Positions 43,688 through 64,000 of a DNA stretch of 64,000 bases are shown here, in pieces; position 1 is the first letter of the stretch, and each line of letters starts with the position of its first letter. Source of the stretch: Nemertoderma westbladi (Eukaryota; Animalia; Xenacoelomorpha); contig JAUCBJ010000203.1 of assembly GCA_032718475.1 (NCBI GenBank), forward strand, positions 1-64,000, read 5' to 3'. Both the position numbers and the translations under genes were made by a program. A model generated the notes under the pieces. It ran no database searches. It saw only the letters and a program-made list of their open reading frames with translations, and was not told the origin of the DNA.

Positions 43688-44140
43688 ATTAATAATAATA
43701 AAATAAATATTTTTATAGCGCCAACGTTATGGTATAGTATTCTGTAAGCAATCTCTGCGGAGCACAGTGAGAAATTAGCTACAATACTGTATGTTAAACA
43801 TACTTAAAAGTTAGTGCGTTAAAAAAAATATATGTTAAAATAAAATAAAATATACCGTATATAAAACCAATTGCTACGACGTAGGTCTACATACTTAAAA
43901 GGGAGTTAATTAAAACAAAAAGTTCGGTGAAAATGTTGACTGAAAAAAGTTATAGCTGAGAGAACATATGTGTTTTTAGTTTTGATTTAAAAACTGTGGT
44001 TGAATGAATTTCTCCTATCAACGTCGGTCTGTTATTCCACAGGCGAGATGCGCATATCTCAAACTCACGCCATCCGATAGTGTAGCAGCGGATTCGTGGC
44101 TCCCTCAGTGTAATGGTTGTGCAGCTTCTGGTAACGAGAC
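43688..44140 (-). mobile_element. 3' end of an L2/CR1-group LINE (ORF2 C-terminus, 3'UTR and tail)
   Basis: Minus strand reads TRSCTTITLREPRIRCYTIGWREFEICASRLWNNRPTLIGEIHSTTVFKSKLKTHMF..* (stop 43950-43952), matching the L2-type 'PRLWN.LP...FK..LKTHLF' tail. It is followed by GCGCTATAAAAAT...TATTATTAT. Confidence 0.75.
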
Positions 44141-44355
44141 GCTCGCGTTTGACTTTCCCAAGTCAAACTATCCCAAAAATTTGTAAATAATATTAATTTA
44201 TAGTCAATTAGGGCTAGGGAGTTATTGATGCTACTTGTAATTATTAATTACTGCCTGACATCCCCTCCCCAGCCTCTCTAAGCGGATGCTACATAGCAAC
44301 ACCAAGCAACGTAGTAACTAATTGATTCTGATTGACTGGCCCAGTATTTCGTTTA

Positions 44356-45263
44356 AGCCTGTTTTAAGGGGGATGGGGGGGGGAGGGGGGTACACCCCCC
44401 TATGGACCTATTTTGCAAATGGCTATAATTTCTGCTTGTGTGTAGTTTTGTATATTTTATACCTTTCGGGGGATTAACATATGGCCAAAGATTGGGCTCA
44501 AACAAAAATTTTCAAATTTGCGTCGCCCTCTAGCGGCCACCAGCGAATTTGTTAATTTCACTAAAAACACTAACTAATCTTACAATTTTGGGCGAAAATT
44601 TTTCAAGATTCAAGAACAAATTTAATTTTGGCGTTTTGATTTGATATCACATACCATTTCATGATTTCTTAATAAATAGTCATGGAATAATGAGACAACC
44701 TTAACAAACTATCAAATTTATATAAAAGTTTCCACATATTTTTATAATAAGCCTTTACACAGAACATTAAGCTTTGCGCAGCACGTGAAGGTATCACATA
44801 GCACTTAAAGTTTTCATACAGCTCGTTAATAAATCGAGCAACTCGGAAAGCCTTTTGATCAGAATGAGAAGCCTTCACGCGGTACATAAAATGATCATGC
44901 AGCACATGAAGACTTCGCGCAGGGAGTCCGGACAATTTCGACCCGGACAATTGCGACGCGGTCAATTGCGACCCATTAAATAAAAATTATAGGTCGCAAT
45001 TGTCCTAACATCTTCGCGCAGCACGTGAATTATTCTCAAAAAAAAATCCCACAGCAAACATTTCAGATTGCTTATTTTATGCTCTTTTTAATATTTCGAT
45101 GGACACACAAACAGAGGAAAAACCAGCTAAGCCGTTTCCAGATTTGAAGTCCTCATTAAATTCTGCTCTAGATGAAATAAAAAAAACAAAAAAACCCGAA
45201 AATTTTGACATGAGGGGGGGGGGGGGGGGGGTAACCCCCCCCCCCCCCCTTAGTAAAGGGCTG
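44356..45263. mobile_element. Putative non-autonomous DNA transposon with imperfect G-run/C-run inverted termini
   Basis: Left end agcctgttttaaggggg..gggtacacccccctatg resembles the reverse complement of the right end catgagggg..gtaacccc..cttagtaaagggct. No clear TSD. Confidence 0.35.
44923..45012. mobile_element. 90-bp MULE/Mutator-type MITE with 9-bp TSD
   Basis: Imperfect 21-bp TIRs (GGAGTCCGGACAATTTCGACC versus reverse complement GATGTTAGGACAATTGCGACC) and internal GGACAATTGCGAC tandem motifs. Flanked by TTCGCGCAG at 44914-44922 and 45013-45021. Confidence 0.8.
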
Positions 45264-45479
45264 GAACATTGTTTGTTGTCTTATTATTGTAGCAGAATAA
45301 TTCGGCAATGAATAACTACCTATTCAATATATTGAATGTGAATGTATTATAATAAAAATTTAATAAAATAAAACAATTCGAATGAGATACGTTCTGCATG
45401 ATATGTAAATATCTCTTCTTTTACTGCATTATAATAATACTAATACCTATATAAATAATAATGTACAGAAGAGAACTCC

Positions 45480-45915
45480 ACCAGTTTATGCCATGGCACA
45501 TGTCAAAAAGAATCGCATCAACGGCTTTTGAAACATATAAATAATGAAAATGGCACATTTCTATCAAGCTATAGCGATTTTGATATGTTGTGCCATGTTA
45601 AACTAAAGTGCCATGTGTCACATGCTAAAAAGCCGAACCTCTGTGCCACTACAGAATTCTAAACCATTTGTAATCGAATCAGCACCTTTGAAAACCCATA
45701 AAAACCGAAAATGGCCAAACCTAATTTCTACATGCTAAACGTGCCACATGCTAAAATGTGGCACTTCTGTGCCACTAGAGCATTCGAAACCATTTGTTAA
45801 CTTTTCAGCACCATGTTAAATCTAGGGGAACCGAAATCTGCGCCATTCTGCCTGTGTTTTATTGTGTCAAATAGGCCTATGCCAATTTTTGCACGTGCAA
45901 GAAATGGCACAAAGG
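45480..45915. repeat. Degenerate DNA-transposon-like relic with many TGTGCCA/TGGCACA motifs in both orientations
   Basis: About ten GTGCCA/TGGCAC words and semi-periodic catgctaaaa...tgtgccacta blocks. Confidence 0.4.
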
Positions 45916-46185
45916 GACCCTTTGAGAATTTGAGACCCCTCTCTGAATATTCGCCGCCATTGAAAACTCATATAGGCGAAAAATAGTGCTCAAACTATGA
46001 CATGATGAGTCTTTGCAATGAGGTTAGGTGCTAAATGACGTCAGTAGAGATGATAAAGAAGGAATTAGATGCAGTGAAAATATCACTATCTGATGGGAAA
46101 CCTGCAGAGAGGCAGATCAAATTCAACTTTTTAGTAACAACCGTCCTGCAGTGTGGGCCTGTATGCTGCTCGATCCAGAGCTCCC

Positions 46186-46430
46186 AGGGGGGGGGGGGGG
46201 GGGGGGGGGACATTCGACGCAATAAAAATTAATCCCTCTCCAGGCGAAATACGACGCAAATAACAGCTGATTACTCCCAAAAATAAAACTGCAACCTGTT
46301 CTATTGTGTTTAGTTTATTGTATTGGTTAAAATAACGTGCTACTGCAACCTGCTCATTTCCCTAAATTGGTAATTTAACATTGAGGCGGGTTATTAATTC
46401 GTCAAGATGGGATTTGCGTCCAGTTCCCCT
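46186..46430 (-). mobile_element. ~245-bp MITE-like dispersed repeat, copy 1 (inverted relative to 49332-49585)
   Basis: The reverse complement aligns along its length with 49340-49580 (cgcaaatcccatct...gagcaggtt.cagt.gcacgttatt...aaccaa.acaataaactaaa...gggagtaatcag...gagggattaatttt). Imperfect GGGGA..GACGCAA TIR. Confidence 0.75.
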
Positions 46431-47657
46431 CCTGGCTATCGCCAGGAGGATCAACCTGTTCACAACCTTGTTCTCTCGCTCTATTGAAACCTCCAGGCTT
46501 GAAGGGACACCGTGGCCAACAAGTTACTGTTTGCTTTGTTTGTCGGTCCGCCGGCATTGCTCCATTATAGCACAGGGCGATAACGTCATGTGACTTGGAT
46601 CCATTCGAGGATCGTTATTAGGGGTGTTCGCGGACAGAACGACCGACAGTGTCGGTTCGTACGTCCGACAATGTCGGACAGTTATATATATATATATATA
46701 CCTCGGATTAGGTTAAAAATGGGGTACTTTTGTTCGATCCCATCCAAATACACTCAACAAACAGTATTGTATTATAAGAAAAGTTCAAAATGACTTCTAG
46801 AATTTTTATTGAAATAATAAATAAAGTAAAGTATAAAAAGGGAATTCCAAACAAACCAAATAGTTGCAAAATACAGAACAGACATTACTGGCTACGTAGG
46901 TTCTGTAGCGCGTTATGGCAACTATATGACAGACAATAATGTACAACCAATATACCGTAGTAATATACGATAATTAATAGTCTAACTATTAATAATGCAG
47001 ACCCACACAAACAATAATTACTATTTAATATAATATTCGGAGATCCAGGGTAAACCTTCTAACCCTCAACTGTTAATACCATAGTGATGGTGAATTACAT
47101 CGCACTGTTGTTGCCTACCCCCCCCCCCCCGCATTATAAGTAATCAAGATATTTCTAATAATAATCCGTTTAAATAATTTGAGTAAAGGCCCCCTAAAAA
47201 CTCGTGCAGTATATATTATATGCACACCGACCTAGAATAATTCATCTTCTTCGTATGTTTGTTTACTATAATTTATATATGTTTATATAATAACATGTGT
47301 TTAAATAACATGTGTTACTTTGTAACAAACAACAAGTAAATATGTAGATTTACTCAAAAATGACTGCATATGAAAAACTGCATGAAAATTTTTTTGAGCA
47401 TAAAGAAGTGCGATTTGGTGGAATTTATTAAATTGCATTAATTTGATTCGATTAAGTATAGCAGCACTAAATTATAGATTTCGATAAAGCATAGTAGAAT
47501 ATAATAATATTGAGAACTATTCTACTTCATTAATTATGAACTAATCGCTCTCAGTGGAGTTCGTTGCAGTGATGATGACATTATCAGGGTATCGATACTA
47601 TCAACAGCCATTTTCTTTAAGATAATTTACGAGCTTCCCACAAACAGTGTTGCAATG

Positions 47658-47660
<3 letters not shown>

Positions 47661-47691
<31 letters not shown>
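47661..47691. repeat. (TG)15 microsatellite
   Basis: Direct reading. Confidence 0.97.
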
Positions 47692-47693
<2 letters not shown>

Positions 47694-47780
47694 GCAGGTA
47701 AATACTTAGAGAAAAGTGTAATGTAGCTTAGATAATCAATTAGGTCCATTTAGAAAATGATGTAAAAGCTCATAATAAAT

Positions 47781-48091
47781 GATTAATGCAGTAGATTAAT
47801 GCCGAGGGTTAATGCCGCGGATTAATGCCGCGGATTAATGCCGCGGATTAATGCCGCGGATTAATGCCGTGGATTAATGCAGTAGATTAATGCCGAGGGT
47901 TAATGCCGCGGATTAATGCCGCGGATTAATGCCGTGGATTAATGCCGTGGATTAATGCCGTGGATTAATGCCGTGGATTAATGCCGTGGATTAATTCCGC
48001 GGATTAATGCCGCGGATTAATGCCGTAGATTAATGCCGTAGATTAATGCCGCGGATTAATGCCGTGGATTAATGCCGTGGATTAATGCCGC
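47781..48091. repeat. 13-bp minisatellite GATTAATGCCG(C/T)G, ~24 copies
   Basis: Direct reading. The variant block gattaatgcagtagattaatgccgagggtt recurs at 47781 and 47872 (7-unit period). Confidence 0.95.
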
Positions 48092-48563
48092 TGGTGTCAT
48101 CGTGTTCCTTTTGAACCACTGTTTCTCCTCATCCTCCTACACATAGATTAATATCAAAGGAAAATAAACCCGAGCGCTTAATCGAAACGGCACTTTACGT
48201 TACACAGGGTTGTATTGATGTCGCAGCTACCTCGGATCGGAAGGAGAAAAACATAACACGCAATAAGTATATAATATAATTACCGGTATTTAACTTATTT
48301 ATGAATGGTTTTTAAACATAATTTAGAAAAATTTAATAAAATGTATAACAAATAAAGCCCACGTTCGAAGAAATACAAAGTAATAATAAACATTTTTATA
48401 ATAATGCCAACAATTGTAGATCGCCGTTGCAATATTTATTGCACTGACTTTCAAAATTGTGTTGTGCAAAACTTTGTAAATATAGTATCAATACTATAAA
48501 TAATAATAGTTTAGACCGACATAGTAATTAGCCTTTAGTTAGTAAACTGTGCAGTTAGTCTTT

Positions 48564-48612
48564 AAAGACAGACTTCAAAGACAGACTTCAAAGACAGACT
48601 TCAAAGACAGAC
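48564..48612. repeat. 13-bp tandem repeat AAAGACAGACTTC x3.8 in the presumed ABHD17 3'UTR
   Basis: Direct reading. Confidence 0.9.
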
Positions 48613-48744
48613 AGCATCGCATCGCATTATGTTATGGAACTATAAATAATAGAGTTTATGTTGCACCAGTTACAATTTCATTTAAATAACGAATTTATAA
48701 ATTTACATAAATTAATATAATTCGGTCGCATATAAATAAATACT

Positions 48745-48976
48745 TCAGTGGTTTGCAACTTGAGCGGGTAAATCAGTAGTAACGAATGTTTTTAGGCGTT
48801 CTAAGTATTGGCCGTAGAGTTCGACATCGTTGTGGCCGGCACCTTCGACCCATAGCGGCTCCACTGACCGCGGGCAGCGTTCGAAGATGGCTAGACCGTG
48901 GTTGAAGTCGATTACCTCGTCTTCAGTCCCGTGGATGACCAACACAGGAGATACTATCTTAGTGACCTTGTCAATG
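48745..48976 (-). CDS. ABHD17: ABHD17-family alpha/beta hydrolase (protein depalmitoylase), last coding exon (232 bp)
   Basis: Acceptor tttatttag|C, then [27 protein letters not shown]...[22 protein letters not shown] with catalytic Asp and His, and a TGA stop. Exons 281+375+232 = 888 nt = 295 aa + stop, in frame. Confidence 0.96.
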
Positions 48977-49331
48977 CTAAATAAACATAAAGGACAATTA
49001 TATTAAGGAACAAACAAATTAATTTTTGGTCGAAATGAGAAAGAAATACTAACTAATAAAAATATTAAATAAAAAAATGTTTTAGCTGCTTCTCGTAATA
49101 AACGATGGACGATTCTAGCGAACTCTGCCAAAGTAACAGAAAAGGGTTTAGAACTGTTTCTGTTGTTTTCCCAGTTACTTGTTTTTTGAAATTCAAGGAG
49201 ATAACGTACCCTTTGGCACGGTAGGTTGGGCGTTACTCTGTTTGTTTCAGGAAATTGGGTCTGTGCCAATTAGTGCCATTCAAACATATGGCCATGTATT
49301 TCTTGGCAAAACACGTTACATGAGGGAGACA

Positions 49332-49585
49332 GGGGGGGGGGGGGGGGGGGCTTGTCGCAAATCCCATCTCGGCGTATTAATATAAATGTTAAATTATCAA
49401 TTTAGAGAAAGGAGCAGGTTACAGTGGCACGTTATTCCAACCAAAACAATAAACTAAAGTCAATAGAACTGGTTACAGTTTTATGTTCGGGAGTAATCAG
49501 GTGTTAATTACGTAGATTTTCCACTGAAGAGGGATTAATTTTCAGTGCGGCGAAATTCCCCCCCCCCCCCCCCCCCCCACCCCCT
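49332..49585 (+). mobile_element. ~250-bp MITE-like dispersed repeat, copy 2 (in ABHD17 last intron); core motif also at ~52560-52625, ~60020-60075 and (inverted) ~62400-62480
   Basis: Inverted match to 46186-46430. Shared core aggaaa(g)gaacaggttacag...aaccaaaacaataaac. Confidence 0.75.
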
Positions 49586-50323
49586 ATCTGATATAAGGAC
49601 ATACAACAATACAACATCAACAAACGATTCAGAGCAGAGAGGACACTAATTATATAATATATATTTAATTATATACATGAAAAAAGTAATACTCTACGGT
49701 AGGAAAAAAAATTATCGTAAATAAGCACTTTTTGTCACTACAGGTGATTTCAAAAGACCGACATTAAAATATTCTGCCCGAGTGTATTGAGTTTTGCACG
49801 ACGGCAGAATATATGAATTTATTTTAACGAACACTATTTTATCTGAAAAATGAAACGAAATCTCCGCTCCGCTCAACGGCACTAAATGTACATTTTATTT
49901 ACATAAGATATATACCAGTACCTAAAGTATATATACGGGTAATCATACAGTTCAGTAGGCCTACTGTCTATGAGTGCGGGTACCATTTAACTAACAGGCT
50001 GTTAATAGCCGCCGACTGACCTAAACTTCACACTTTCTATCACTAATTTAGTTATAGAAAGTGCTAAAGTAAGCGAAAGCGATACTTACTTGCAATGTGT
50101 TTTCTACAAATGTTAGTGAGGAAAATTGATTTTTCAGATGATAATATTTACTTCCCCAGATGTAAAATATAACGGATTTTATATATCGATATTTATTTAT
50201 TGTTTCAAAAGTAATTCCTGTTATAATATACGGAGGAAATTATTACGAAACAATTTGGGATCAAATTTACAATAATATATCGCCAACCCATACCCAACCC
50301 ATTAGTTCTCGATTACAACTTAC

Positions 50324-50698
50324 CTAGCGAAGGCATCAAACCACCATGTGCGTCTCGTATCGGGGAAGGCGACTCTCATCCCGCTCATTAACGGGGAGTG
50401 GAGGATGACGCCGGCGCATTCGTATCGGGACGCGAGATCCACGGTGGGCACTGTGCCGATACTCTGTCCGTAAAGGAGTATCGACTCGGGACTGATCCCG
50501 TAGCGACTCCGCAACGCTTGCCACGCCGCGTCGATGTCCGTGTACAGGTTGCGCTCGCTCGCCTTCCCTGTGGAGACTCCGTACCCGGAGTAGTCGTAAC
50601 TAAATATGTTACAGTTCAGTCGCGTTCCCAAACCCACGTAGAAACTGCTCATCTGTCCGATATCAACCGCGTTGCCATGGGAGAAGAGAATATTGTAG
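50324..50698 (-). CDS. ABHD17: ABHD17-family hydrolase, coding exon 2 (375 bp)
   Basis: Acceptor tttctcag|C, then [24 protein letters not shown]...[12 protein letters not shown]...[15 protein letters not shown]...[13 protein letters not shown]...FDAFA, then donor AG|gtaagt. Contains the nucleophile GQSIG. Confidence 0.97.
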
Positions 50699-50776
50699 CT
50701 GAGAAATAAAAGTTACATCGTCGTGTTTAATTTATAATTATACATACATTATACATTACATACGGTATACCTGTAC

Positions 50777-51582
50777 CCAGGGCCGTGTTTAGGGAGGAGG
50801 GGGGGGGGGGGGGGGGGGCACCACGATCCAATAACTACAGCGATTGACCGAACTATAGAGGAGCCGAACTGAAACCGAATATGGCAATTTGGAATTTTGC
50901 CCCTTATTTTTTCCAAAATATATAAAAAACAAAAAGTTATTGTGAAAGACAGTAAATATTTTTGTAGCTTTGTGACATTTTTTTTCACTTTCGATTCTTT
51001 TATTTTTTGATGAGATGTTTTCAGACTGATATACACAGGAACATGTTTCAAATTTCTAATTTCCACGTCTAAATAGGGATATGAGTTTTCATGAAATATG
51101 TTTTCCAAGGAAATTTCCGAAAATTTCCGGAAAAGTATATTTCATCCGTAGTTACGACCAAAAGAAACAAGACAACTAACCACCTTAACACATCTAAGCA
51201 GGAATCCCTTGTTTCTCTTTCTACTGTTTACTCTACTTGTGTTTTACTGTGTTTTCAGAATGTACTTAATAAAATAATTAATAAAAGGAAATTTCCGGAT
51301 AATCCGAAAATGTAGAGGAAATTTCCGGGAAAATGTATGGGAAATTTCCAAACATTTCCTACTAATATATTTACATCTACATTCAGGTTTCTTTGAAAGG
51401 TATCTGCAATAAATATATTGAAAAGTTAGGGTAATGAAAACGAGATAAAATGTGTCTTTCAGTATATTATAGTCTGTGAGAAGTGCTTGGCGCCGTATAT
51501 GTGCAAACCCCATACAGTAGAACCCAGACCCCCCACCACTGACCCGACCCCAGGCCACCCACCACTCTAAATCCGGCCCTGG
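50777..51582. mobile_element. 806-bp non-autonomous TIR element (CCAGGGCCG...CGGCCCTGG) with 9-bp TSD, in the first coding intron of ABHD17
   Basis: TIR ccagggccgtgtttag versus reverse complement ccagggccggatttag. TACCTGTAC at 50768-50776 and 51583-51591. Internal GGAAATTTCC palindromic repeats. Confidence 0.75.
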
Positions 51583-51981
51583 TACCTGTACATTATACAG
51601 ATTTCAGTATTAACTAAAACACTAACTAACATTTATATAAACACATTTATTGTACCACTAGCTGACTACCGGTAGGGCTATTATTATATTGTTTAATACA
51701 GAAATATAGGCCTAATGATTTAATATACTTGTAATTTATATTCATTTATAATTGATAATATAATCATAGGCAGTTAATATTGATATTTTAGTTCAGTCAA
51801 TATAATATATGAGTATGGATGGTACTCATGAGTTGAGTATCCGTATTTACAACAACAAATAACTAATAATAAAGAGGCTGCTAGGACTAATTATTGCAAA
51901 ATTTCAGTTGCATAGCCCAGTGAGTGAGTGCAGGAGTGTCTAAGACTACAATTATTATGTAGGTTATTAATTACAACCAAC

Positions 51982-52262
51982 CTGGGATTAGGACAACAGC
52001 GTACGAACATGCAGCTAATTTTGTTGCCACTCTTTGTTTTAATTATAAAGACTTCAATGCAATCGAGTTCGCGTTGAGTATATTGCCACTCGGCTTTCTC
52101 AGTTAGGTGTAGGTTGTAAGTGGGAGAGGTCCCTGCAGTCTCGTCGCATTGAATATTGTAGGTGGGCGTTGGGGGGAGGAACGCCAGCTTTGCCGCGATA
52201 CGAGAAGGCCAGGGTGGACAGCAAAACAGGCTGCATATCTCGCTGAACGATAACCCATTCAT
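51982..52262 (-). CDS. ABHD17: ABHD17-family hydrolase, first coding exon (281 bp)
   Basis: MNGLSFSEICSLFCCPPWPSRIAAKLAFLPPTPTY...LHLTEKAEWQYTQRELDCIEVF...KSGNKISCMFVRC is the canonical ABHD17 N-terminus with its palmitoylated Cys cluster. Donor AG|gttggt, phase 2. Confidence 0.96.
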
Positions 52263-52452
52263 AACTAGTATAAGTAGACGATTGGATTTCCAAATTATAT
52301 GTTTTAATATAAATAGGCCAGTAGGCCTATATTTACAGATTTATCTGTTATTAGAATACGAGTACTTGAGTACGGTTTATATGTTGTAGGGCCTACAGCT
52401 GTAGGGTGTAGCGCCTAATGTACAAATGTACTTGCTTGAACGTGAACGGATG

Positions 52453-52758
52453 GCATATTACCAATTGGGGTGTCGTTTCAGCCTACCGGTATTTTAACAT
52501 ATGAAATTAATTTCGCGAATATTTAATTTCGATATTCACCATTTAAGGTGGGCCTACCTCTTAAAGGAAAGTAGCAGGTTATAACCTAATAATGGCAGGC
52601 TTTTCTAACCAAAAGAATAAACTAAATTTAGGAACACAGTTTAAGCCTACAGTAAATTTTTTACTTCAAGATACTATACATACAGTACTAATTCTTCAAT
52701 ATTAATTTAACATTAACCCTATGAGAAGGCTGAAACGACACCCCAATTGCCAATTTGC
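52453..52758. mobile_element. 306-bp MULE-type MITE with 9-bp TSD, ~190 bp upstream of the ABHD17 ATG
   Basis: Perfect 23-bp inverted repeat CAATTGGGGTGTCGTTTCAGCCT (52462-52484 / 52727-52749), extending imperfectly to G...C ends. GAACGGATG at 52444-52452 and 52759-52767. Confidence 0.85.
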
Positions 52759-53039
52759 GAACGGATGTGAACTTAATGTACGAATGTACATTAGGCCAAT
52801 CAAATACTCCCAATCAAATAGGCCTTCTGAAATAATGAAAATCAAATAATGAATATCAAATAGCACTGTTCTGTAGTGTTAGAAAAAGATTTTATTAATT
52901 CAGTAATTGTTATTTAGGCATCTGTAATGCTGTAGGCCTAATGTATATTGAAAATAAAATGATCCAATTTAAAATAAGGTAGAAATGTCTGTACCGGTAC
53001 TGGTACTGTATGTTTATAAAAAATATTTTATTATGTTAC

Positions 53040-53225
53040 CGTACTGAACTGAAAATAAGATGGTCATGGATCACGTAATTGCACGGCGACTCTAAAACAT
53101 TGAATAATAATGATTCGTCGTCAAGGATAGCCTGATAGCCCCTAGCCCCATGAGACTGCGGCTCGTTTCCATCTGACCATGGGGGTCCTCGACCTCGCCC
53201 TCGGTATGTGATGAACATATTATTG
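53040..53225 (-). other. Possible upstream (5'UTR) exon of ABHD17
   Basis: GC-richer island bounded on the minus strand by cttattacag| and |gtaaca. No coding homology seen, and splice-like sites alone are weak evidence. Confidence 0.25.
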
Positions 53226-53955
53226 CTGTAATAAGTCTATGAGTAAGATAAAGTAGGCATACTGGTAGTTAGTATAGTCTGATAGTATGTCTGTTTTTGT
53301 CTGATGATTAAATTTTAAAAATATTACCGTCAACACCCGAATGTGGGCATATATGCTTTTTAAAAAACCTCAAAGTTTTACATCATAATTTTAAGGGAAG
53401 TATCATGAAGTAAAATTCAATGAAAGTTTGATATCTAATCTTCACAATAAGTATTTAACAATTTATTATATTTCAGTTTTTTGTACATTTTTTTTTTTAA
53501 TTTAGAAAAGTGCCCACTTTACTGCTTTAAGGTACCGGTCTGCCGGTAGCCTAAAAAGTTCTACCCCAAAGTGAGCATTTTAACGGACTCTTCTTCAATC
53601 GACTTTTTAAAACATCAATTAGCTTAGTTTTTGCTTTAACATACCCCCTTATGTGGGCACCATTGGAAATTTAAAAAAAGCTATACAAACAGGGCGAAAA
53701 AAGTAACCAAAACAATGTATTGGTGAAAAATACAAGCGCTCCAAATATGCTAAAAATCAGTAAAATTTGATGAGCTATTTTTTGGATTCAGTGCCTTTAT
53801 TGAGTGCAAAATTTTGTCATAATACTTTGAAAATCAAACAAAACAACAAATTGTCTAATACATAAAACATAACTACCATGGCATTTGCCAGTGAGCCGCA
53901 ATGATTGATTATATCTGTATATTGTGGATTAACTGATTAAATTAATTAATTAAAA

Positions 53956-55919
53956 CGCAGTCGCAACTCAAACGAGTTATCATCTACGGACAATAGTTCT
54001 ACAACCCCAGCATCTCCCGCAGCGATCCCCGCTGCTCAACAGGATAACCAGGACTCTGCTTGCGCCTCGAGACCGGTTTCCAGTGATCAGCAGGGAAACC
54101 AGTAAAGGGAGACCATCGTTGCTCATCAAACCAGCACGCGTTTATCAAGTGTTGCTGCTTTAATGCCAGGTCACTGAAAAACAAATTGTCGGACTTGGAT
54201 GAGTTTATATCCACTACCCCGTATGATGTGATCGCGATAACGGAAACCTGGGCCAATGATTCTATTTCTGACGCGATGTTGTCTGGCAGCAAACGTTTCC
54301 GGGTCTTCCGGCAAGACAGACACGACCGGGTTGGGGGTGGAGTGGCCCTCCTTGTGCGGAACTCGATACAGTGCATACCTGTAGCACTTCCTCATCAAAC
54401 TACGGACATAGAAGCTGTAGCCATTGACCTCATCGACGGCTCTTCCCGATTAATATGCGCTTACTGTCCGCCACCTGTTCCCAGCGTTCCTGACACTACT
54501 ACCGAACTTTGCGAAGCTCTCAACATCCTGTGCGACACCAACTAACCGTGTGTAATCACTGGCGACTTTAATCTGCCGCTGTTCGATTGGACTGATGTTT
54601 CCCACCCGGACAACGATATCTATAACAACTTTTTTAGTTTCGTTTTGGAATCAGGCTGCCTCTTGCAGGTCCAGTACGAGCCTACCAGAGGTGACAACGT
54701 TCTAGACCTTATTTTTACCACGGATGACCATTTTGTCTCGAGCATTTCGACGGCTGCTCCATTCTCTACGAGTGAACACGCCACTGTGTCCTTCGATATA
54801 ATTGGTTCACCTCAGTGTGACAGCTCGGACACCTCTGCGCCACGTGGTTTTTACGATTTCGCTAATGGTGACTACACAGGTTTTAAGTCATTTATGAGGT
54901 CAATTAAATGGGAAGAAGACGAGTTTGCTTCACGTAGAACAGTGGACGATTTCTTCCTAGCATTTAGCAAGGTTATGAAAAGTGGTATAAATACTTATAT
55001 TCCTTATAAGGAATTTTGTAACGATAGCAACCAAAAGAAGTACCCTCATTACGTCAAGATTTTACAGAAAGCAAAGAAACGCTTGTGGCGCAGGCGTCAC
55101 TCGGAAGGCGGTATGGCTGCGTATAAATGTGTCGCAGCGCAAGCTTCCCGCTCCGCTCACCGTGCTGACTGCGAGCGGGAAATCCGGATTCTCAGTTCTG
55201 GAAACACAAATGCGATCTTTCGGTACCTGAAGAAAAAGAACTCCAACAGATCGGACATTGGCCCCCTGAAATATAAAGGTGAAACAGTAATTGATGACGA
55301 AACTAAGGCTACCATTTTTTCCTCTGTCTTTTCAGAAAATTTTACCCCTGACAATAATGTGCCTTTAAATTTTAACCGCAAAGTACCCTATAATGTTAAT
55401 TTATCTTCTGTTGAATTTAATCCTGTAAATGTTTCAACTTTTTTTTACATAAACTAGCTCCAAAACACAGTTCCACCCCGGACGGGTTCCCGGCTATTTT
55501 ATTTTCTAAACTAGCTTGTACAGTTGTACCATAGCAGCGCCCTTATCAGTTATTTTCCGTGTCTCTTTTGAATCGCACGCCCTTCTATCTGTTTGGCTCA
55601 CTGCCTACATTATACCTGTATTTAAAAAGGGCGATTCATAAGACCCTTATAATTACAGACCTATCTCCCTCACGTGTATAACCTGTAAGATAATGGAAAT
55701 GGTAATTAAAGATGGTTTGATAAATTACCTGTTAACAAACAAATTAATTACCTGGCAGCCCGGGCATAACACGGTTTTTTAAAGAGAAAAAGTACATGTA
55801 CACAATTATTAGATTGTCTTTCCAATTGGATTGGTGCAAACTTATAGATAAGCGTAAAAATGTTGATGTAATTAATATATGTAGATTTCTCTAAAGCGTT
55901 CGATTCTGTCGTACATAGT
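53956..55919 (+). mobile_element. Decayed CR1/L2-group non-LTR retrotransposon: ORF1 tail plus ORF2 (APE endonuclease and N-terminal part of RT), 5'- and 3'-truncated
   Basis: CFNARSLKNK...DVIAITETW...DR..RVGGGVALLV...AYCPP...GDFNLP..DW...PTRGDNVLDLIF, then PDGFP..., IPVFKKG..DPYNYRPISLT, HGF, DFSKAFDSV. In-frame stop at 54543-54545 and several frameshifts after 55440. No YADD motif. Confidence 0.93.
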
Positions 55920-56362
55920 TATCTGTCAGTCTGTCATACATACAGACATACATGTCATACATAGCATTTTTATCCAACAGATCTCAGCAAGTTTTGGTGG
56001 GCAATATGTTTTCACAGGTTTGTGCAGTTATCTCTGGTAGTCTGGTACGGTCCCAGACAGCCAGACTAGTTAACCAACCAGTCCTGCAGTCAGCTTAGTT
56101 GTTCACGTGCTGCTCGAAGTCCCAGACTAGTTAACCAGTCCGCTTAGTTGTTCACGTGCTGCTCGAAGTCCCAGACTAGGAAACCAGCAAGTTAGTTGTT
56201 CACGTGCTGCTCGAAGTCCCAGACTAGTTAACCAGTCAGCTTAGTTGTTCATGTGCTGCTCAAAGTCCCAGACTAGTTAACCAGTCAGCTTAGTTGTTAA
56301 CGAGCTGCTCGAAGTCCTAGGCTAGTTAACCAGTCAGCTTAGTTGTTCACGTGCTGCTCGAA

Positions 56363-58197
56363 CAGTCACTGATCTATGCCAAAATTGGCATTTTTCAAAA
56401 TTGGAAGTTTTCATGCCAAAATTGGAATTTTTGATATATTTTCTGTCCAGGGTCAGCCAATATTGGCTCTTGGCTGGGGTTAACTAAATTTTGCAAAAAA
56501 TTATATTTTGATGCATTTAGAAACTTATGACCGAGATAAAAAAAAATTCACCATGCTTTTGGTTTTTTATGATTAAAATTTTGATACTGTAACCTCTAGT
56601 TCCAAAATTGGAAGTTTTTGACCTGCCATTTTTGGCATTTTTTATTCTGATAGAGGAAGAGCAGCTGCAGACTGGCAGATAGAGATATCTGTATATTGGT
56701 ATATTACCGAACTTTTGTTGTAAATGTGTCAGTGTCATGCTGTGCTGCTGTGACAGCTGTGATGTGACATTATACATTCTAGTGCAGTAGTGAGTTGCAT
56801 GTGCTTGTGTGTGTAGTATATGGGTACTTGTACTATCCAATATCCGAATACCTTAATGTGAATGTTAACCTTGATATGATATCTTCTTAACTACATAAGA
56901 AACGCCCTGCGCTGGGCCATACAACAATGTAAGATTTGATCACATTATCAATTTCAATACTTTGTCTCTGTTTGTGTATAACTATACATTCTGACCTTTT
57001 TTTAAGAATTCACCATCACCTGCTTAGCTTGAAGAAGACTTAGTTCCAGTTGTTGTGTTAGTGTTAGTACTTCCAGAGGCGGTCATTCATTACCAGTGCC
57101 TTTTGTTTTATTAAATGCCGACTTTGTGCCACACATCTACCTGTCTACTGCATAAGTAACCGCTTTAGATCCTAGAGCACCTTAGACCCTGAACGAACTT
57201 AGATCTTGGGTGAACTTAGATCCTTCCCATTTGAACTTAGATCCTTCCCAGGCAGCCAAGCGAACTTAGATACTTCCCCTACTGCCATACGAACTTAGAT
57301 CCTTCCCATATGAACTTCGATCCTCAAAGTACGAACTTAGATTCCACCTTGCATATATCTGTATATATCAGTTCAGTATATTGCTGTACCATAGCTGTGT
57401 TAATGTAAAAACGTCATCCCCATACTGCCATAGGCCAGCAGACCTTACTGTAAATATTATCACGCTTGAAGGGAAGCGAACTTACAGTAGATCCTACTAC
57501 CATAATAATAATAAATAATACATTGCACCGAATTAGCTATTAATTTGCAAATTATAGTTTGTTGGTGATTAACTAATCGCAACTACTTTGAGTGTATGAC
57601 TTATTTGCATTAGATCATTATAAGTCTGTAAGTACTTTTATATGCTTAATGTAAAATGTAACACAGTACAATACTATAATATCAGTTGAACGTGGCCAGC
57701 ACTATATGATGTGGGATCTAAGTTCGCCTCTCATCTAGCAGTCTAGCGTGTGCTAAGGAATTTGTATAAATCTGGGATCTAAGTTCACCTAGTTCAGTAG
57801 TTAGGATCTAAGCTCCCCCGGACTACTGGATAGGATCTAAGTTCACTTAGTTAGGATCTAAGTTCAACCAGACTGCCAGATATAGGATCTATGTTCGCAT
57901 ATATCTGTATATAGGACCCAAGTTCGCATAGATATAAGTTCCTCAAACTGTCAAAGTCACGCCCTGCAGGATCTAAGTTCGTTTACCGAAATATATATAA
58001 TGCAAATGCATCATTACCTATACGGTAATAAATTTGCATGAAAATAGATTAGTTCAAACTGTCAAAATACATTATTAATCTAATATCTGGCTGACTGGTG
58101 CCTATCAGTACTAGTTCCAATTTTGGAATTAATGCCGAAATTGGAATAAAAACTTCCATTTTTGAAAACTGCCAATTTTGGCATAGATCACTGACTG
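56363..58197. mobile_element. Non-autonomous TIR element A: CAGT...ACTG ends, ~49-bp TIR, 5-bp TSD TCGAA
   Basis: Left cagtcactgatctatgccaaaattggcatttttcaaaattggaagtttt versus right reverse complement cagtcagtgatctatgccaaaattggcagttttcaaaaatggaagtttt. TCGAA at 56358-56362 and 58198-58202. The host minisatellite unit fixes the duplication at exactly 5 bp. Confidence 0.92.
57155..57988. mobile_element. Foldback/MULE-like element with tandem GAACTTAGATCC subterminal arrays, nested in element A (left boundary approximate)
   Basis: Multiple GAACTTAGATCC at 57195-57345 and inverted GGATCTAAGTTC at 57714-57981. Right end ggatctaagttcgtttaccg. Confidence 0.7.
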
Positions 58198-58509
58198 TCG
58201 AAGCCCCAGACTAGTTAACCAGTCAGCTTAGTTGTTTACGTGCTGCTCGAAGCCCCAGAATAGATAAAAAAACAACAATAACGGATGTGTGAGTTAAACC
58301 GATAAGAAATGATTTATTCTGATTCAATGAATTCTATTTAGTCTTACTCTATTCCAGTATTCTATTCATCATTCATGTAGGGCCATAGGGTATTCAATGT
58401 TAAAAAAAGATTTGAATTTACCGCCAAAATATAGGTGGCAGATCTGATCTGCCACCCTTTCTAGTACAAATTACATGTCTTTCAATCATTTGAATTTCCC
58501 GCGCTATGG

Positions 58510-58948
58510 CAGTCAGGAATACTGGTCACAATATGTCCAATTTACAGCCAGAATGTGTCCACGGAAAACGCTCTCAGAGTGAAATTTCTCCATAGTAAAC
58601 AATGCTAAATTTCATTTGAAAACCCGCAGTGAAATTTTAACATTGGCATTCTAAAAATTATGCCATTACAATCGCCATAAAATTCTGTGTATAGGCTGTA
58701 GGCCCCTAAATTAATTTGAGAATTAGAATCTCATCGTTGGGATAACTTATCATAATATTAAAAATAAAAATGTGCCCAGCTTCTGCTTTGAGTACTAGTG
58801 GAGTTACAGCCAAAATATGTCCGGAAATATAATCGCAGCCTGTCGCCTGTGAAGGACAAATAGTGGCTGCACGGACACTTTCTGGCTGTAAATATGTGGA
58901 CAATTTTTGGCTGAGCTTCAGCCAGAAAGTGACCAGTGTTCCTAACTG
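58510..58948. mobile_element. Non-autonomous TIR element B (439 bp): CAGT...ACTG ends, 5-bp TSD TATGG
   Basis: Left cagtcaggaatactggtcac versus right reverse complement cagttaggaacactggtcac. TATGG at 58505-58509 and 58949-58953. Internal cagcca(g/a)aa..tgtcc repeats. Confidence 0.88.
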
Positions 58949-59116
58949 TATGGAGCAGGGTGGCACCTTTTAGCTGTTTAGGGACTTGTATACCGGTACC
59001 GGTACTGCTATAGGCAGATACTGAGATACGCATAGCCGTTACACTGTTACACGTTGGGTGACGTTATACTGTTATAGCGGTACGGTACGGTACCGGTCCT
59101 GCCGGCCGGTACCAGT

Positions 59117-61057
59117 CAGTCTGTGAGAAGTCAAAAATTGGACTTGAGTCCAAAATTGGACTTCGACTCCAGTTCAAGTCCAAAATTGGACTTCTGTGAG
59201 TCCAATATTGGACTTCAAATCAGCCAATTGTTCCAGGGCCTTGGGTAATTGGATCGGGCGGGATTTTTTTTTTTAATCGAAAATATATCAAAAAATAAGA
59301 GTTTTGAACAGGGGGACCTGAAATTCACCAGGGGGAACTTTTTTTATAAGGCTTTAAATTTTTACAAAAGTCCAATATTGGACTTTAAGTCCAATTTTGG
59401 ACGTGACATTGAGAATCAAACTTAAAGGTACATGAAGCATGACAGATGAGAGACAGCCAGACAGCTATTAAGTTATGGAAAGTTACCTTTGCAGCTCTGT
59501 ATGTATCTTCACTCTTCAGTGTACTGTACTTAGAATATAATGGTACATTCTAGCATTCTAGGTACTTTGTACTTTACTTTTAGCATATTGCAGTATTGTT
59601 TAGTTTACAATTTACATTCATGTTATGTCTAACCTTACAGCCTTATGTACCCAGGACTTTAGAGTCTTTAGCTCTTTAGGACTAGATTAGATTATGCTCC
59701 AACAAATATTTAATTACAAATTATATTTGGTGGAAACTGGTAGCAATGCCAGGTTTGCCAACTGCAGCTGCTGCTAAGACTAACTACAGTACAAGCTACG
59801 ATTTCGTCTAAGCCTATGCCCTATGGGAGCCCTATCAGAAAGAAATACCACAAGTTGATGCTACCACCATCTCTTCTAATTTTTCCATACAACAGGAAGG
59901 GTATTTTTAAACGGCTGGATAATGAAAGGGGATTACTAACTGATTAACGTGTTGGGGTCTCCACATAATAAGTACAGAAGTAAGAAGTAACACACGTCAT
60001 ACTGTCATAATCATAAACCAATTGAGGGAAAGGAACAGGTTACAGAGGCAGGCTTTTCTAACTAAAACAATAAACGGCCACTTTTGACTTTACTAATTGA
60101 AGGAGCCCTATCACCTCACCACATACTATTACTACAATCGGCATGCTGTATTGCAGCTGCATTATATATAAACAGATAAAGGCCCTATTAAGAATGCTGT
60201 GCCGGCTTGTTGACAAAAGTGCGCCTCCACAACTCCCTTACACTCTTACAGCCTTATCACCCATGACATTTGCTAGATCATCTGCATCTTCAAGTCCAGT
60301 GTCCTTTAAGACAGTAAGAAAGATGCGTCTCAAGAAATTCATGGGCTGTCCACAATGCTTATTCACTCCATGAGGTGCACTGGCTGGTCCTCACAGCTTA
60401 AAGCAATGTCAAATGTCCTGCAAAGCGGAGGCGGCTTTGTTCTAGTGTCAAGCTTGGGGGAACCAATGACTGAATGAGACACCTCCAACTCCAATGTTAT
60501 ATAGTGTCTGGTTGGAGATGCAGAGATGTGTGCATTGTACTTGACACAGTGAACCTAATCAAAACAATTAGTCAATAAACATTAACTCAATAACAGTTAC
60601 AGTTTACAGTAGTCTTATTTTTGCCATACGAAAATACCACAGGTATGGGTATGTATGAATGAACTACTGAACTATACAGCTATAACTCAACTACCGCTAC
60701 CGCGGTATACACCACTAAGGCAGTAAGGCTACCGCAAAGCCATACCACTACCGCAAAAAGTAACTACTGATGTCTGACTGTGCGTGTGCGATCCCTGCTT
60801 ATAATACTTATAGTTATAATAATTAATTTAATCATTAAAATAATGTTGCATTGTAATTATGTAATATATATGTACTGAGACTGACTGACTGATACGGGAT
60901 ACAGTTTTGATTTAAATACCGATATACCTGTATACAGTATGGCAGCATGGGTACACTTGGAGTTGTACTAAAGTCCAATATTGGACTTTGGAGTCCAAAA
61001 TTGGACTTGAAGTCTAAAATTTGACTTGAAGTCCAATTTTTGACTTCTCACCGACTG
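59117..61057. mobile_element. Non-autonomous TIR element C (1941 bp): CAGT...ACTG ends, 5-bp TSD CCAGT
   Basis: Left cagtctgtgagaagtcaaaaattggactt versus right reverse complement cagtcggtgagaagtcaaaaattggactt. CCAGT at 59112-59116 and 61058-61062. Subterminal AGTCCAAAATTGGACT palindromic repeats. Confidence 0.9.
60185..60545 (-). mobile_element. Degenerate 3' end of an RTE-clade-like LINE, nested in element C
   Basis: Minus-strand fragments LEQSRLRFAGH (60413-60445) and LKDTGLEDADDLANVMGDK..ELWRR resemble the RTE ORF2 C-terminus. Frameshifted. Confidence 0.55.
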
Positions 61058-62342
61058 CCAGTACCGGTCAGCCGGTTGACCAGTAGCCTGTCTGCCTGTA
61101 GGCTTCAGGGCTTATGTACCGGTACCGTCAGACTGTAAAATATATATACAGACTGACAGATATAAGGTGTAAGGTATACGCATACGGCTGTACGGTACTG
61201 CATACTGGTATAGGCCTACTGCTGTAGGCTACTGCCAGACTGTTCGTATACGGTACCGTACCTCACACTGTCATGTCCCCAATTGCCAGTCCCTGTCATA
61301 CATATATCTGTACCTGTGTACCAGTGTACTGTACTGCTGTACCTGCTACCACTGTACCAGTACCAGCCTACTGCGAACTGATGTACGCTACTTCAGTAGG
61401 CCTGCTTGTATGCAGTTTCTTCCTTACTCTACCAGTCTACTGACTCAGTCGACAGTCGGTAGGTTCTGTTGACTGGTGCTTAGATCGTGGCTTTTCCAGT
61501 TAACATTATTCCATTTTGTATAAAACAAGTAATGTGGTTGGAGAAAGCTGCTACTAAGCAGCAACCAATCACGTTAATCCTGTTTTACACAGACAGACAG
61601 AGTCAATGAGAATGGAATATTGCTAACATAGGTTCCACCTTGGTGTAGTGGTTGCATTGAATTCACATCTCCCGTAGGTCATCACATGGGCCAGGACAGT
61701 TTTCGTTATTCTTTATTGTTATTCATTACAACGTCTGCCGACTTATAAGTCGTCAGACTTTGTGCGTAATCCCTGGCCGAAGAAAATTTATTTTTTTTTA
61801 ACATGAAAAAGTTCAGGTTACCTTTATTCCATATCTCAGTATTTGTATTCACTATCACCCTCCCCTTGCAGCCTTGTCTGTCTGCCTGTTTCATTATACA
61901 AGTTACACCGAAAGGAAACCAGTCAGGTGTCAGGCAGAACAGTAGGTACAGTAAAGCAAATTATTAAGAATGAAGCAACAGTAATATGTAATAGCCAAAG
62001 CCAATACCGGCACAGTACTGTAGCAGGTTTTGTTAATTCAAACTTTAAGCCTTAAAGGGGGCCTTATTCTTTCTCATGGTAGTTGCATGGGAACAGTAAT
62101 GACTGAGACGATTGAAAAAGTAGTGGAATGTAATTTATGCGATATGGAAGTACAATACAACCTCTACATTATCGAGACACAAACAAAAAATTGATAAAAA
62201 ACAGAAAAGGGAGAACCGGCAGCGAAACTAAACCATTTCCACGCTGTCCAGCATGCCAGCACTGTTCTTTTTGCTACTCACGTGTCGGGAATGCTACAGT
62301 CAGACCTTGGAACGATTGAATGGGTATGATGTAGCGTTTGCA

Positions 62343-62559
62343 CAGGTGTAAAAGCTACGCCGACAACCGGCAACCACTGCCCACAACAGCAAATATGAAA
62401 ATGTAACCTGAGTTCCTAACTCTCGTTTATTGTTTTGGTTAGACTAACCTTCCACTGTAACCTGTTCCTTTCCCTCAATTAACTAATTAATAAATAACAT
62501 TAATTAGCTTTAATAATGGTTGTCGGCGTTACGGCGTAGCATTTACTGTACATACACCC
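62343..62559. mobile_element. ~217-bp MITE with TIR GGTGTAAAAGCTACGCCGACAACC
   Basis: Inverted copy ggttgtcggcg[ttacggcg]tagcattta..tacaccc. Flanked by CGTTTGCA (62335-62342, 62560-62567). Confidence 0.7.
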
Positions 62560-62943
62560 CGTTTGCAGTGAAGTGGTTGGTATCATAAAATTTGTGTGAA
62601 TAAAACGCAACACGAGTTTCGGGGTGATGAACTGATATGTGAGTATGTGAGACCTGCATTTTCCACACATTGAATATTACTATGTCTGTACGTGGCAAGT
62701 ACCGGTACTTCAATGAGATATGAGTACTGTACAGTATGTTTATTACTAAACCAGACTTATAAATATTTAATTTACAGTTTACATCATTGTAATTAAACTA
62801 ACCCACTTACGTACTGACTTACACAACATACGGTATTTTTTATTTTTCTTGCATATATTATGCCTTGTATTGTACCATTATACAGATATAATAAATATTA
62901 TATGGCTTACTCGATTACTAACTGACAATCACTAGCAGCTTAA

Positions 62944-63565
62944 TTACTGTGGGGCGAGCCACGAAGTGAGCGAAGCCTTAGCATATGGGTACCATTAACG
63001 AGTTGTCTGTCGTCGTCGTCGTCGTCTGTCGTAAATTTTTGATCGCTAATAACTCGGTTATTCCTTGATGACATTAAACGAAACTCGGTACGTATGTATT
63101 CCGGCAAAAGTTTAGAAAGAATCTCAAGTTTTGTCAAAAACGAACGAACGCAACGAGTTTACAGTGGATACGAGTACCCATCTGCCATAAATCAGCTGTT
63201 ACTCTCACAGTTTCAAGACTTTGCACAGTTGTAAAGGTCGTTAGTCTCCGTTTAGGGAAATTATTTTAAGACAAAACAGGACGAGCGCAACGAGGCTCAT
63301 GAAGGAGAACAGTATTGTAAAACTAAAAATGTCATACTTAACTTAAATAGCCCTAGTTAGAAGGTTTACAAATGACAGTTAAAGTGTGTAAGGGCAAACT
63401 GAAATGGATCTATATTTTTACAACTAGTTTATCACAAACTGATAGCATCGTCTTCACTCATATATTTTAGGAAAGACAGTTTTCGTATATCTAATAGAGA
63501 TTAGTATAATGTACTTTCTAATTTAGGCTCTCGTGCTGCGCGAAGGCCCCACGAACGTGTAATAT
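62944..63565. mobile_element. Possible Helentron-associated (HINE/DINE-like) non-autonomous element
   Basis: Short subterminal inverted repeat GTGGGGC / GCCCCAC, GCGAAG-type hairpin motifs and a (GTC)n/GTCTGTC microsatellite at ~63004-63030. Confidence 0.35.
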
Positions 63566-64000
63566 CTGATTACTTTGGAATAATGGTAACCTGAACTTTT
63601 TGAAGTTAGCAATATTCCATTCCCATTGACTCTGTGTTAAACATGATTAACGTGATTGGTTGCTGGTTAGTAGCAGCCCCTAGCAGGTTTCTCCAACCAC
63701 CTTTAAAGCACCTGTGGTTCTGTTGTACTTGTAGGACTGAAGTCCTACAAGTACTGAAGAACTGAGAAGTAGTGAAGTACTGAAGTCACCTGGCTTCCTG
63801 CTGGAAGTATAGGCAGTTGCCAGTTGGTTACAGAGATAAGTACGGGTGGGTCGGACACCATTGGCCTTCGGGACACACAAACAAATCCCAAAAAACCAAT
63901 AGCCACCGTCGCCTACAGTGTATATATTGAAAGTTAATCAAAATGCATCGATGTTCTGGTGTTATTTAAGCCTTGACTGCACACTGAGGACCATCCAATA

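Follow-up and report, generated by a model that had tools for sequence, protein, structure and literature searches.

When Sleeping Beauty excises, its non-transferred strand is cut inside the element, and the resulting 3' overhangs are joined by non-homologous end joining into TA-CAG-TA or TA-CTG-TA (PMC6943129; here and below, statements on published systems refer to excerpts of the cited sources). Target duplications of 5 bp are described for hAT5, a Blackjack-related hAT lineage in invertebrates (PMC12730594, PMC9004415), and for Transib/RAG1, which has CACAATG plus nonamer ends and GC-rich targets (PMC1131882). The latter source also gives G as the third position of hAT ends, and non-autonomous elements have been classed solely by their ends and duplication (PMC4455052). 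In this study we analysed 64,000 nucleotides of animal DNA from Nemertoderma westbladi (assembly GCA_032718475.1, contig JAUCBJ010000203.1, positions 1 to 64,000 of the forward strand; hereafter the window), in which the region 5' of the gene ABHD17 is filled with 13-bp motifs made of a 5-bp direct repeat around CAG or CTG (N5-CWG-N5, where W is A or T). We consider it probable that these motifs are inherited footprints of cut-and-paste DNA transposons like three elements (A, B and C, labelled in this analysis) that reside among them, and we leave their family unassigned.

51926..61876, no strand: field of 59 perfect N5-CAG/CTG-N5 motifs, by a regular-expression count over the whole window

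The cores of the 59 motifs were 27 CAG and 32 CTG, and the density was 5.9 per kb, which would amount to 472 extra bases if every motif were an 8-bp insertion. The initial annotation had listed 34 positions between 52314 and 61601; all 34 proved to be perfect motifs (15 CAG and 19 CTG), but the list was an under-count, 57 lying in that interval and two more at 51926 and 61864. Its chance expectation of less than one motif per 10 kb was reproduced for 51900-61900, where 200 dinucleotide shuffles contained on average 0.31 motifs (maximum 2) and 200 order-4 Markov sequences 0.60 (maximum 4). Outside the field, perfect motifs were absent from 42710-51899 (9.2 kb, the control), from 61901-64000 and from the satellite at 395-42709. 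The term hotspot is therefore apt relative to the rest of this window, which is as far as the comparison reaches. The additional one-mismatch cases that had been reported were also in excess (18 in 51900-61900 vs. 4.6 expected, a number reached by none of 300 shuffles). In 61901-64000 there were nine such motifs vs. 0.9 expected, two of them inside an 18-bp tandem repeat, and no excess was seen in the control (4 vs. 3.0). Deleting all motifs exposed three more, which were overlapping or nested cases.

The motif was specific in both arm length and core. Observed and shuffled counts around CWG were 27 and 18.2 for 2-bp arms, 16 and 4.4 for 3 bp, 5 and 1.2 for 4 bp, 59 and 0.34 for 5 bp, and 1 and 0.02 for 6 bp. 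Among the 64 three-letter cores, CTG (32) and CAG (27) were followed by ACT (7) and AGT (6), seven longer cores that were tried yielded no motif at all, and 5-mers were repeated 123 times at lag 8 vs. 26, 24, 13 and 23 times at lags 9-12. Thus, the equal enrichment of other spacers or arm lengths that the initial annotation had named as contrary to its reading was not found in the window. Generic slippage, templated repair or assembly error might be invoked, as other small duplications do occur in the region and 5-bp tandem repeats without a core exceed shuffles about 3-fold; the latter holds in field and control alike (35 vs. 11.2 and 33 vs. 10.5). However, a constant CAG/CTG that is missing from the ancestral site cannot come from slippage, other cores and arm lengths show no excess, and the motifs are reproduced by short-read contigs. 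Slippage and assembly error are thereby largely refuted, and we regard this origin as scarcely credible. Among shorter cores, G was found 21 times vs. 2.4, A (15) and T (16) were raised as well, and C was found six times. Scars trimmed to C, G, CA, TG or CG cores are suggested by such counts, but only suggested. TA-CWG-TA occurred at 1.1 per kb in the field, at 0.44 per kb in the control and at 2.4 per kb in the sequence past 61.9 kb, counts that are too small to judge.

Several motifs could be recognised individually as insertions of 8 bp, either because they interrupt a reading frame or because related sequences lack them. Contigs came from four public runs (X1-X4) of three studies, which cover the window wholly or partly. 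The features concerned, including a broken long interspersed nuclear element (LINE), are as follows.

53953..56039, plus strand: broken LINE with the endonuclease and the start of the reverse transcriptase; three perfect motifs and one imperfect motif in 55500-56039
55516..55528, no strand: TTGTA-CAG-TTGTA, an insertion of 8 bp that shifts the LINE reading frame
55751..55763, no strand: CCTGG-CAG-CCCGG, with one mismatch, an 8-bp insertion that shifts the LINE frame
56053..56091, no strand: motifs 56053 and 56079 in the first 49-bp tandem unit, missing from the sibling units
57790..57802, no strand: TAGTT-CAG-TAGTT, missing from the sibling subterminal repeat at 57842
59586..59598, no strand: TATTG-CAG-TATTG; contigs of other copies of the repeat omit 8 letters in 4/4 runs
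61589..61601, no strand: ACAGA-CAG-ACAGA, located in a long inverted repeat (left arm); its right arm (63625) has a single ACAGA

The claim that motifs break the LINE frame was borne out: removal of 8 bp at 55516 and at the imperfect motif 55751 restored the frame and merged three LINE frames into one. The claim that some are absent from sibling repeats also stood, with empty sibling sites for 56053, 57790 and 61589 and, for 56079, by alignment of the 49-bp units. Six perfect motifs, together with the imperfect one at 55751, were thus shown individually as 8-bp insertions, and for the remaining perfect motifs we infer this from their shape. A perfect 8-bp scar accounted for one of the 12 indel rows examined (of 400) in the run contigs; three 7-bp rows and one 6-bp row among the 12 could be read as 5-bp repeats around a shortened core or as plain duplications. 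In addition, three pieces of other repeat copies were 17, 25 and 30 letters shorter than the window with 1, 1 and 0 substitutions, and these shortfalls fit 2x8+1, 3x8+1 and 3x8+6. Six 8-bp scars considered within the 48 gap letters of a LINE contig were dropped, since the reading frames reveal further insertions, of 4 and 5 bp, in that contig. The 5' part of the LINE (53953-55499) is free of scars, though the LINE piece is about 2.4% diverged and has a premature stop at 54543.

The motifs were also reproduced in contigs from separate studies.

61035..61499, no strand: stretch of single-copy depth with 10 perfect motifs; X1, X2 and X3 contigs have no other letters and no gaps

The X1, X2 and X3 contigs likewise matched the window over 52879-53385 (three motifs), and those of X1 and X2 over 52192-52376 (two motifs), in both cases at single-copy depth with no other letters and no gaps. 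Accordingly, the 13 motifs in 61035-61499 and 52879-53385 were letter-identical in contigs from two studies (2019 and 2023), which is evidence against assembly error and against somatic excision. X1/X2 and X3 belong to different studies, at most one of which is the source of the window, and they may share a strain or individual. The uniform shape and very high density of the scars could be understood if programmed somatic excision removed germline-limited elements and made the scars anew. In that case the central A/T would vary randomly per individual, yet these 13 motifs are identical between two studies (allowing for a shared strain or individual, and for contigs dropping minor variants), and the excess of motifs with a substitution indicates that the scars age. 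We therefore find a somatic origin very improbable. No empty allele was seen at the motifs among the rows listed for these contigs, which drop minor variants. The motifs are likely to be inherited excision footprints.

The elements that reside in the field share their anatomy with the scars.

56363..58197, no strand: element A, 1835 bp; ends CAGTCACTGATCTATG / CAGTCAGTGATCTATG; 5-bp duplication TCGAA
58510..58948, no strand: element B, 439 bp; ends CAGTCAGGAATACT / CAGTTAGGAACACT; 5-bp duplication TATGG; no motifs inside
59117..61057, no strand: element C, 1941 bp; ends CAGTCTGTGAGAAGTC / CAGTCGGTGAGAAGTC; 5-bp duplication CCAGT

All three are non-coding, with CAGT...ACTG ends and 5-bp target duplications, and they represent three families with short subterminal motifs in common. 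Element A, which interrupts a 49-bp tandem unit at TCGAA, contains 13 motifs and a nested repeat and has no Pfam match in the frames scanned, while element C contains subterminal AGTCCAAAATTGGACTT repeats, 14 motifs and nested repeats. For element B an empty site was recovered in 4/4 runs, in which 58504 is joined to 58949, so that 444 bases are skipped and 5 letters fit either side. The CAG...CTG ends, the 5-bp duplications and this one empty site agree with the anatomy that had been predicted for resident elements. Together with the spacer and arm specificity, they support the excision-footprint interpretation of the initial annotation. The core is identical to the three bases with which A-C begin (CAG) or end (CTG). 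The same scar would be expected of any CAG-ended family, and A, B and C are themselves three different ones. It is thus conceivable, although on balance unlikely, that another CAG-ended 5-bp family outside the window made the scars and that A-C are bystanders or landed in scars; such an origin would be compatible with the cutting mechanism proposed below. However, A lies in an ordinary 49-bp unit and the empty site of B has a single duplication, so neither landed in a scar, and the ends and duplication length of A-C match the scars exactly.

Further elements were noticed nearby. The intron between coding exons 1 and 2 of ABHD17 contains an 804-bp element (50778-51581) with ends CAGGGCCG...CGGCCCTG and a 5-bp duplication GTACC or, read one base wider, the 9-bp TACCTGTAC; if the 5-bp duplication is correct, it would be a fourth CAG-ended element, with ends of hAT-like appearance. 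A long inverted-repeat element at 61530-63700 carries motif 61589 in its left arm, where an insertion of about 175 bp was also detected (61623 joined to 61799, 4/4 runs). Its interior has one-mismatch motifs only, which are perhaps older scars. Finally, a 306-bp inverted-repeat element at 52453-52758 can be read with the 9-bp duplication GAACGGATG, and its depth indicates a high copy number.

The arms reveal how the target may have been chosen. After strand collapse 48 of the 59 arms were distinct; therefore, the motifs are not one repeat family. CAG and CTG were equally frequent (27:32, P = 0.60 against 1:1), and the core was independent of the purine/pyrimidine state at each of the 5 arm positions. 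Without symmetrisation the arm matrix was palindromic, with T at position 1 (28) and A at position 5 (27), C at position 2 (21) and G at position 4 (19), and depletion of G at position 2 (5) and of C at position 4 (2), as expected for a two-fold symmetric complex. Arms lacking both G at 2 and C at 4 numbered 52/59 (background 0.65), and 47/59 began with T or ended with A (background 0.51). A lean of targets to YNNNR, which had been noted previously, was present but weak (23/59 vs. a 25% background, P = 0.016), and T-M-W-K-A describes the targets better. The targets are AT-leaning (GC content of 33% in arms vs. 39% in the field). The duplications of A, B and C fit the arm matrix in 3/3 cases, which is weak given a chance of about 0.27.

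These features can be accommodated in a simple scheme. A transposase encoded elsewhere in the genome would insert the element with a 5-bp stagger at the loose palindromic target T-M-W-K-A. Excision would involve a cut of the transferred strand at the element tip and a cut of its partner strand 3 nt further in, leaving a 3' CAG overhang on each flank. The overhangs would then pair C:G, A:A and G:C and be ligated, with the A:A mismatch randomly repaired to CAG or CTG. Combining the Sleeping Beauty steps with a 5-bp duplication would yield exactly N5-CWG-N5, and it is this geometry that suggests overhang pairing around A:A. The field would then reflect at least 59 germline events along the ancestry of this haplotype, spread over a period long enough for substitutions to have arisen in a minority of scars.

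The field is bordered by ABHD17 and, further away, by a satellite.

395-42709: satellite, 42 kb, 24-bp unit (variants 22-33 bp); commonest unit ACAGTTCTGGACTATATTGGTACT, 501 copies; higher-order blocks
51982..52262, minus strand: ABHD17 coding exon 1, ATG at 52262
50324..50698, minus strand: ABHD17 coding exon 2, borders from sequence reading and an X4 junction
48745..48976, minus strand: last coding exon of ABHD17, border from sequence reading

The exon-2 protein matches named ABHD17 in many animals with up to 88% identity. Run X4 behaves like RNA: it contains one spliced junction, between exons 1 and 2 of ABHD17, and a loose end at 51982 is ABHD17 exon-2 sequence. The motif field had been placed upstream of ABHD17, and it does lie 5' of the start codon except for motif 51926, which falls in the intron between coding exons 1 and 2; the field could be a long first intron or could lie upstream of the promoter. 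A candidate non-coding first exon near 61427-61540 has a donor-like site on the minus strand and an X4 depth of 433 in bin 61169-61515; it is not established, because that bin overlaps a repeat. Within exon 1 (52061-52221), an X2 contig is identical to the window, while 8/161 letters are different in an X1 contig of the same sample, which points to either a divergent allele or a paralog. Inverted 194-bp arms, 86% complementary, surround the last coding exon (46189-46382 and 49385-49578), and about 24 copies of a 13-bp tandem array, GATTAATGCCGTG, lie 3' of the stop codon at 47781-48090. An Rfam scan of 42700-64000 gave no matches.

The distribution of scars within the field was uneven: B had none, the density inside A and C was about 7 per kb, and it reached 21-24 per kb in the short gaps on either side of C. 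As a candidate cause of the clustering we slightly favour targeting of the chromatin in the 5' region of the gene. Alternatively, one or few elements could have made repeated short-range hops, leaving a trail of scars with A-C at their present resting places; this alternative concerns the clustering and is compatible with excision footprints. It would explain why the three elements and all 59 scars occupy the same 10 kb, with none in the adjacent 9.2 kb, and why scar density peaks next to the elements, with four scars in the 168 bp that separate B from C and 10 in the 472 bp to the right of C. On the other hand, 27 scars lie inside A and C and hence came from other visitors or later hops, older one-mismatch scars reach beyond the field, and a chain of about 60 loss-free hops would presumably require very efficient reinsertion. 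We therefore consider hopping a possible but rather unlikely cause. As to the rate, six repeat pieces in A and C, two of which overlap and which together align over about 1280 letters, had seven substitutions and spanned seven distinct perfect motifs, so that the two kinds of change may have been about equally frequent in these repeats. Contrary to that rate, the LINE piece had 51 substitutions and three perfect motifs, and a piece within B 5 and 0. All these pieces are from the 32 listed out of 38,918. GTAC was also more frequent in 51900-64000, at 6.8-9.1 per kb, than in 42710-51899, at 2.5 per kb, and formed runs such as ACCGGTACCGGTAC; this excess is possibly a second class of palindromic scars.

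Several observations weigh against the interpretation of the field as excision footprints. The density, with a scar roughly every 170 bp, is not easily accounted for, just 6/59 perfect motifs are individually demonstrated as insertions, and 1547 bp of the LINE 5' part in mid-field have no motif (P about 1e-4 if motifs were uniform). An automated sibling test was positive for 4/59 motifs, one of which (61148) was a low-complexity match, vs. 3/200 random deletions; most motifs have no sibling in the window for comparison. The observed/expected CpG ratio is 0.69 in the field vs. 1.03 in the scar-free gene body, and the CpG-poorer field is therefore a poor fit to a simple unmethylated-promoter model. 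The tests of T-M-W-K-A were post hoc, chosen on seeing the data. No excision allele of A, B or C was seen, and neither was a trio of filled, empty and footprint alleles at any one site. A Pfam scan of 65 of the 97 listed frames, plus seven earlier ones, returned solely LINE endonuclease and ABHD17 families above the cut-off, and a transposase family was thus found in none of the 65 frames of at least 48 aa. An end-motif scan of metagenome contigs gave 30 matches, none of which was a paired element with a duplication (0/30), so that they were taken as chance, and the same scan of viral contigs gave no matches.

Beyond the footprints themselves we tentatively propose, with less than even confidence, an uncharacterised transposase lineage that joins a 5-bp, nearly sequence-free target to a hairpin-free, Tc1/mariner-style cut 3 nt inside its ends. 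It would home to germline gene 5' regions and write 8-bp insertions about as often as point mutations, which would make N5-CWG-N5 a genome-wide map of its visits. Such a lineage might be related to Tc1/mariner, having given up the TA target, or be a hAT5, having given up the hairpin of hAT elements. The scar shape would record the cutting chemistry of a transposase that nobody has in hand. Chance alone would produce the 13-bp motif about 0.03-0.06 times per kb, and at such rarity a search with a single regular expression could chart former insertion-excision events genome-wide. Such a map could yield the target preference independently of surviving elements, as well as the share of 5'-region sequence that derives from transposon visits; here, perfect scars alone would make up about 4.7% of 10 kb.

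Compared with known systems, the motifs resemble the products of Sleeping Beauty and Tc1/mariner in that the scar consists of the duplication, the terminal three bases (CAG or CTG) and the duplication again (PMC6943129, PMC8151067); the element ends start with CAG, and an internal cut, 3' overhangs and end joining are shared with the scheme above. The Tc1/mariner rule of 2-4 terminal element bases between the duplications (PMC6943129) also describes these scars. Unlike in Sleeping Beauty, the duplication is 5 bp of varied sequence (48/59 kinds) rather than TA, the net insertion is 8 bp rather than 5, and the scars are natural, inherited and dense. The duplications of A, B and C are TCGAA, TATGG and CCAGT instead of TA, the empty site of B retains 5 letters, and 2-bp arms around CWG number 27 vs. 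18.2 in shuffles, against 59 vs. 0.34 for 5-bp arms. A 5-bp AT-leaning target excludes a standard Tc1/mariner element.

The likeness to hAT5 lies in the 5-bp duplication, the third terminal base G and the invertebrate host (PMC12730594, PMC9004415, PMC1131882). Elements A-C have both the duplication and the G, the latter being not diagnostic since Sleeping Beauty likewise has CAG. A hAT5-type transposase could produce the same overhang by a nick 3 nt inside the end and a flank hairpin with a CAG loop, the 3' edge of which is opened by a host nuclease. Its 5-bp duplications and occurrence in invertebrates would suit such an origin, as would the third-position G and the 804-bp element at 50778-51581, the CAGGGCCG ends of which can be read with a 5-bp duplication. 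However, that element is equally readable with a 9-bp duplication. Moreover, hAT transposases form flank hairpins (PMC5499845, PMC8151067), the opening of which yields heterogeneous scars, and hAT excision is blunt or leaves a 1-nt overhang (PMC8151067), whereas the scars here carry element ends rather than inverted flank bases. There was no prominent class of longer cores, and cores complementary to the arm, as expected of hAT-type inverted flank bases, were not enriched over the control (28, 6, 5 and 1 in the field and 22, 9, 7 and 0 in the control for cores of 1-4 nt). A hAT5-type transposase is thus distinctly improbable, the comparison being with published descriptions of hAT5 and with a flank-hairpin excision extrapolated from hAT.

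Transib shares the 5-bp duplication with A-C, but the ends of A-C are CAGTC/CAGTT and not a CACAATG heptamer plus nonamer, its chemistry involves a flank hairpin (PMC5499845, PMC8151067), and its GC-rich targets contrast with arms of 33% GC in a field of 39%. MULE elements differ in that their excision is mostly precise (PMC5225508). The literature searched, from which subscription papers and Repbase Reports were largely absent, contained no description of N5-CWG-N5 scars or of hAT5 excision, which does not establish their absence from print, and the combination of a 5-bp duplication with a Sleeping Beauty-like cut was not found there either. As described in these sources, a cut recessed by 3 nt together with a 5-bp target fits neither Tc1/mariner, with its TA, nor the hairpin-forming 5-bp families, which predicts a transposase that either belongs to a new lineage or deviates from the mechanism usual for hAT.

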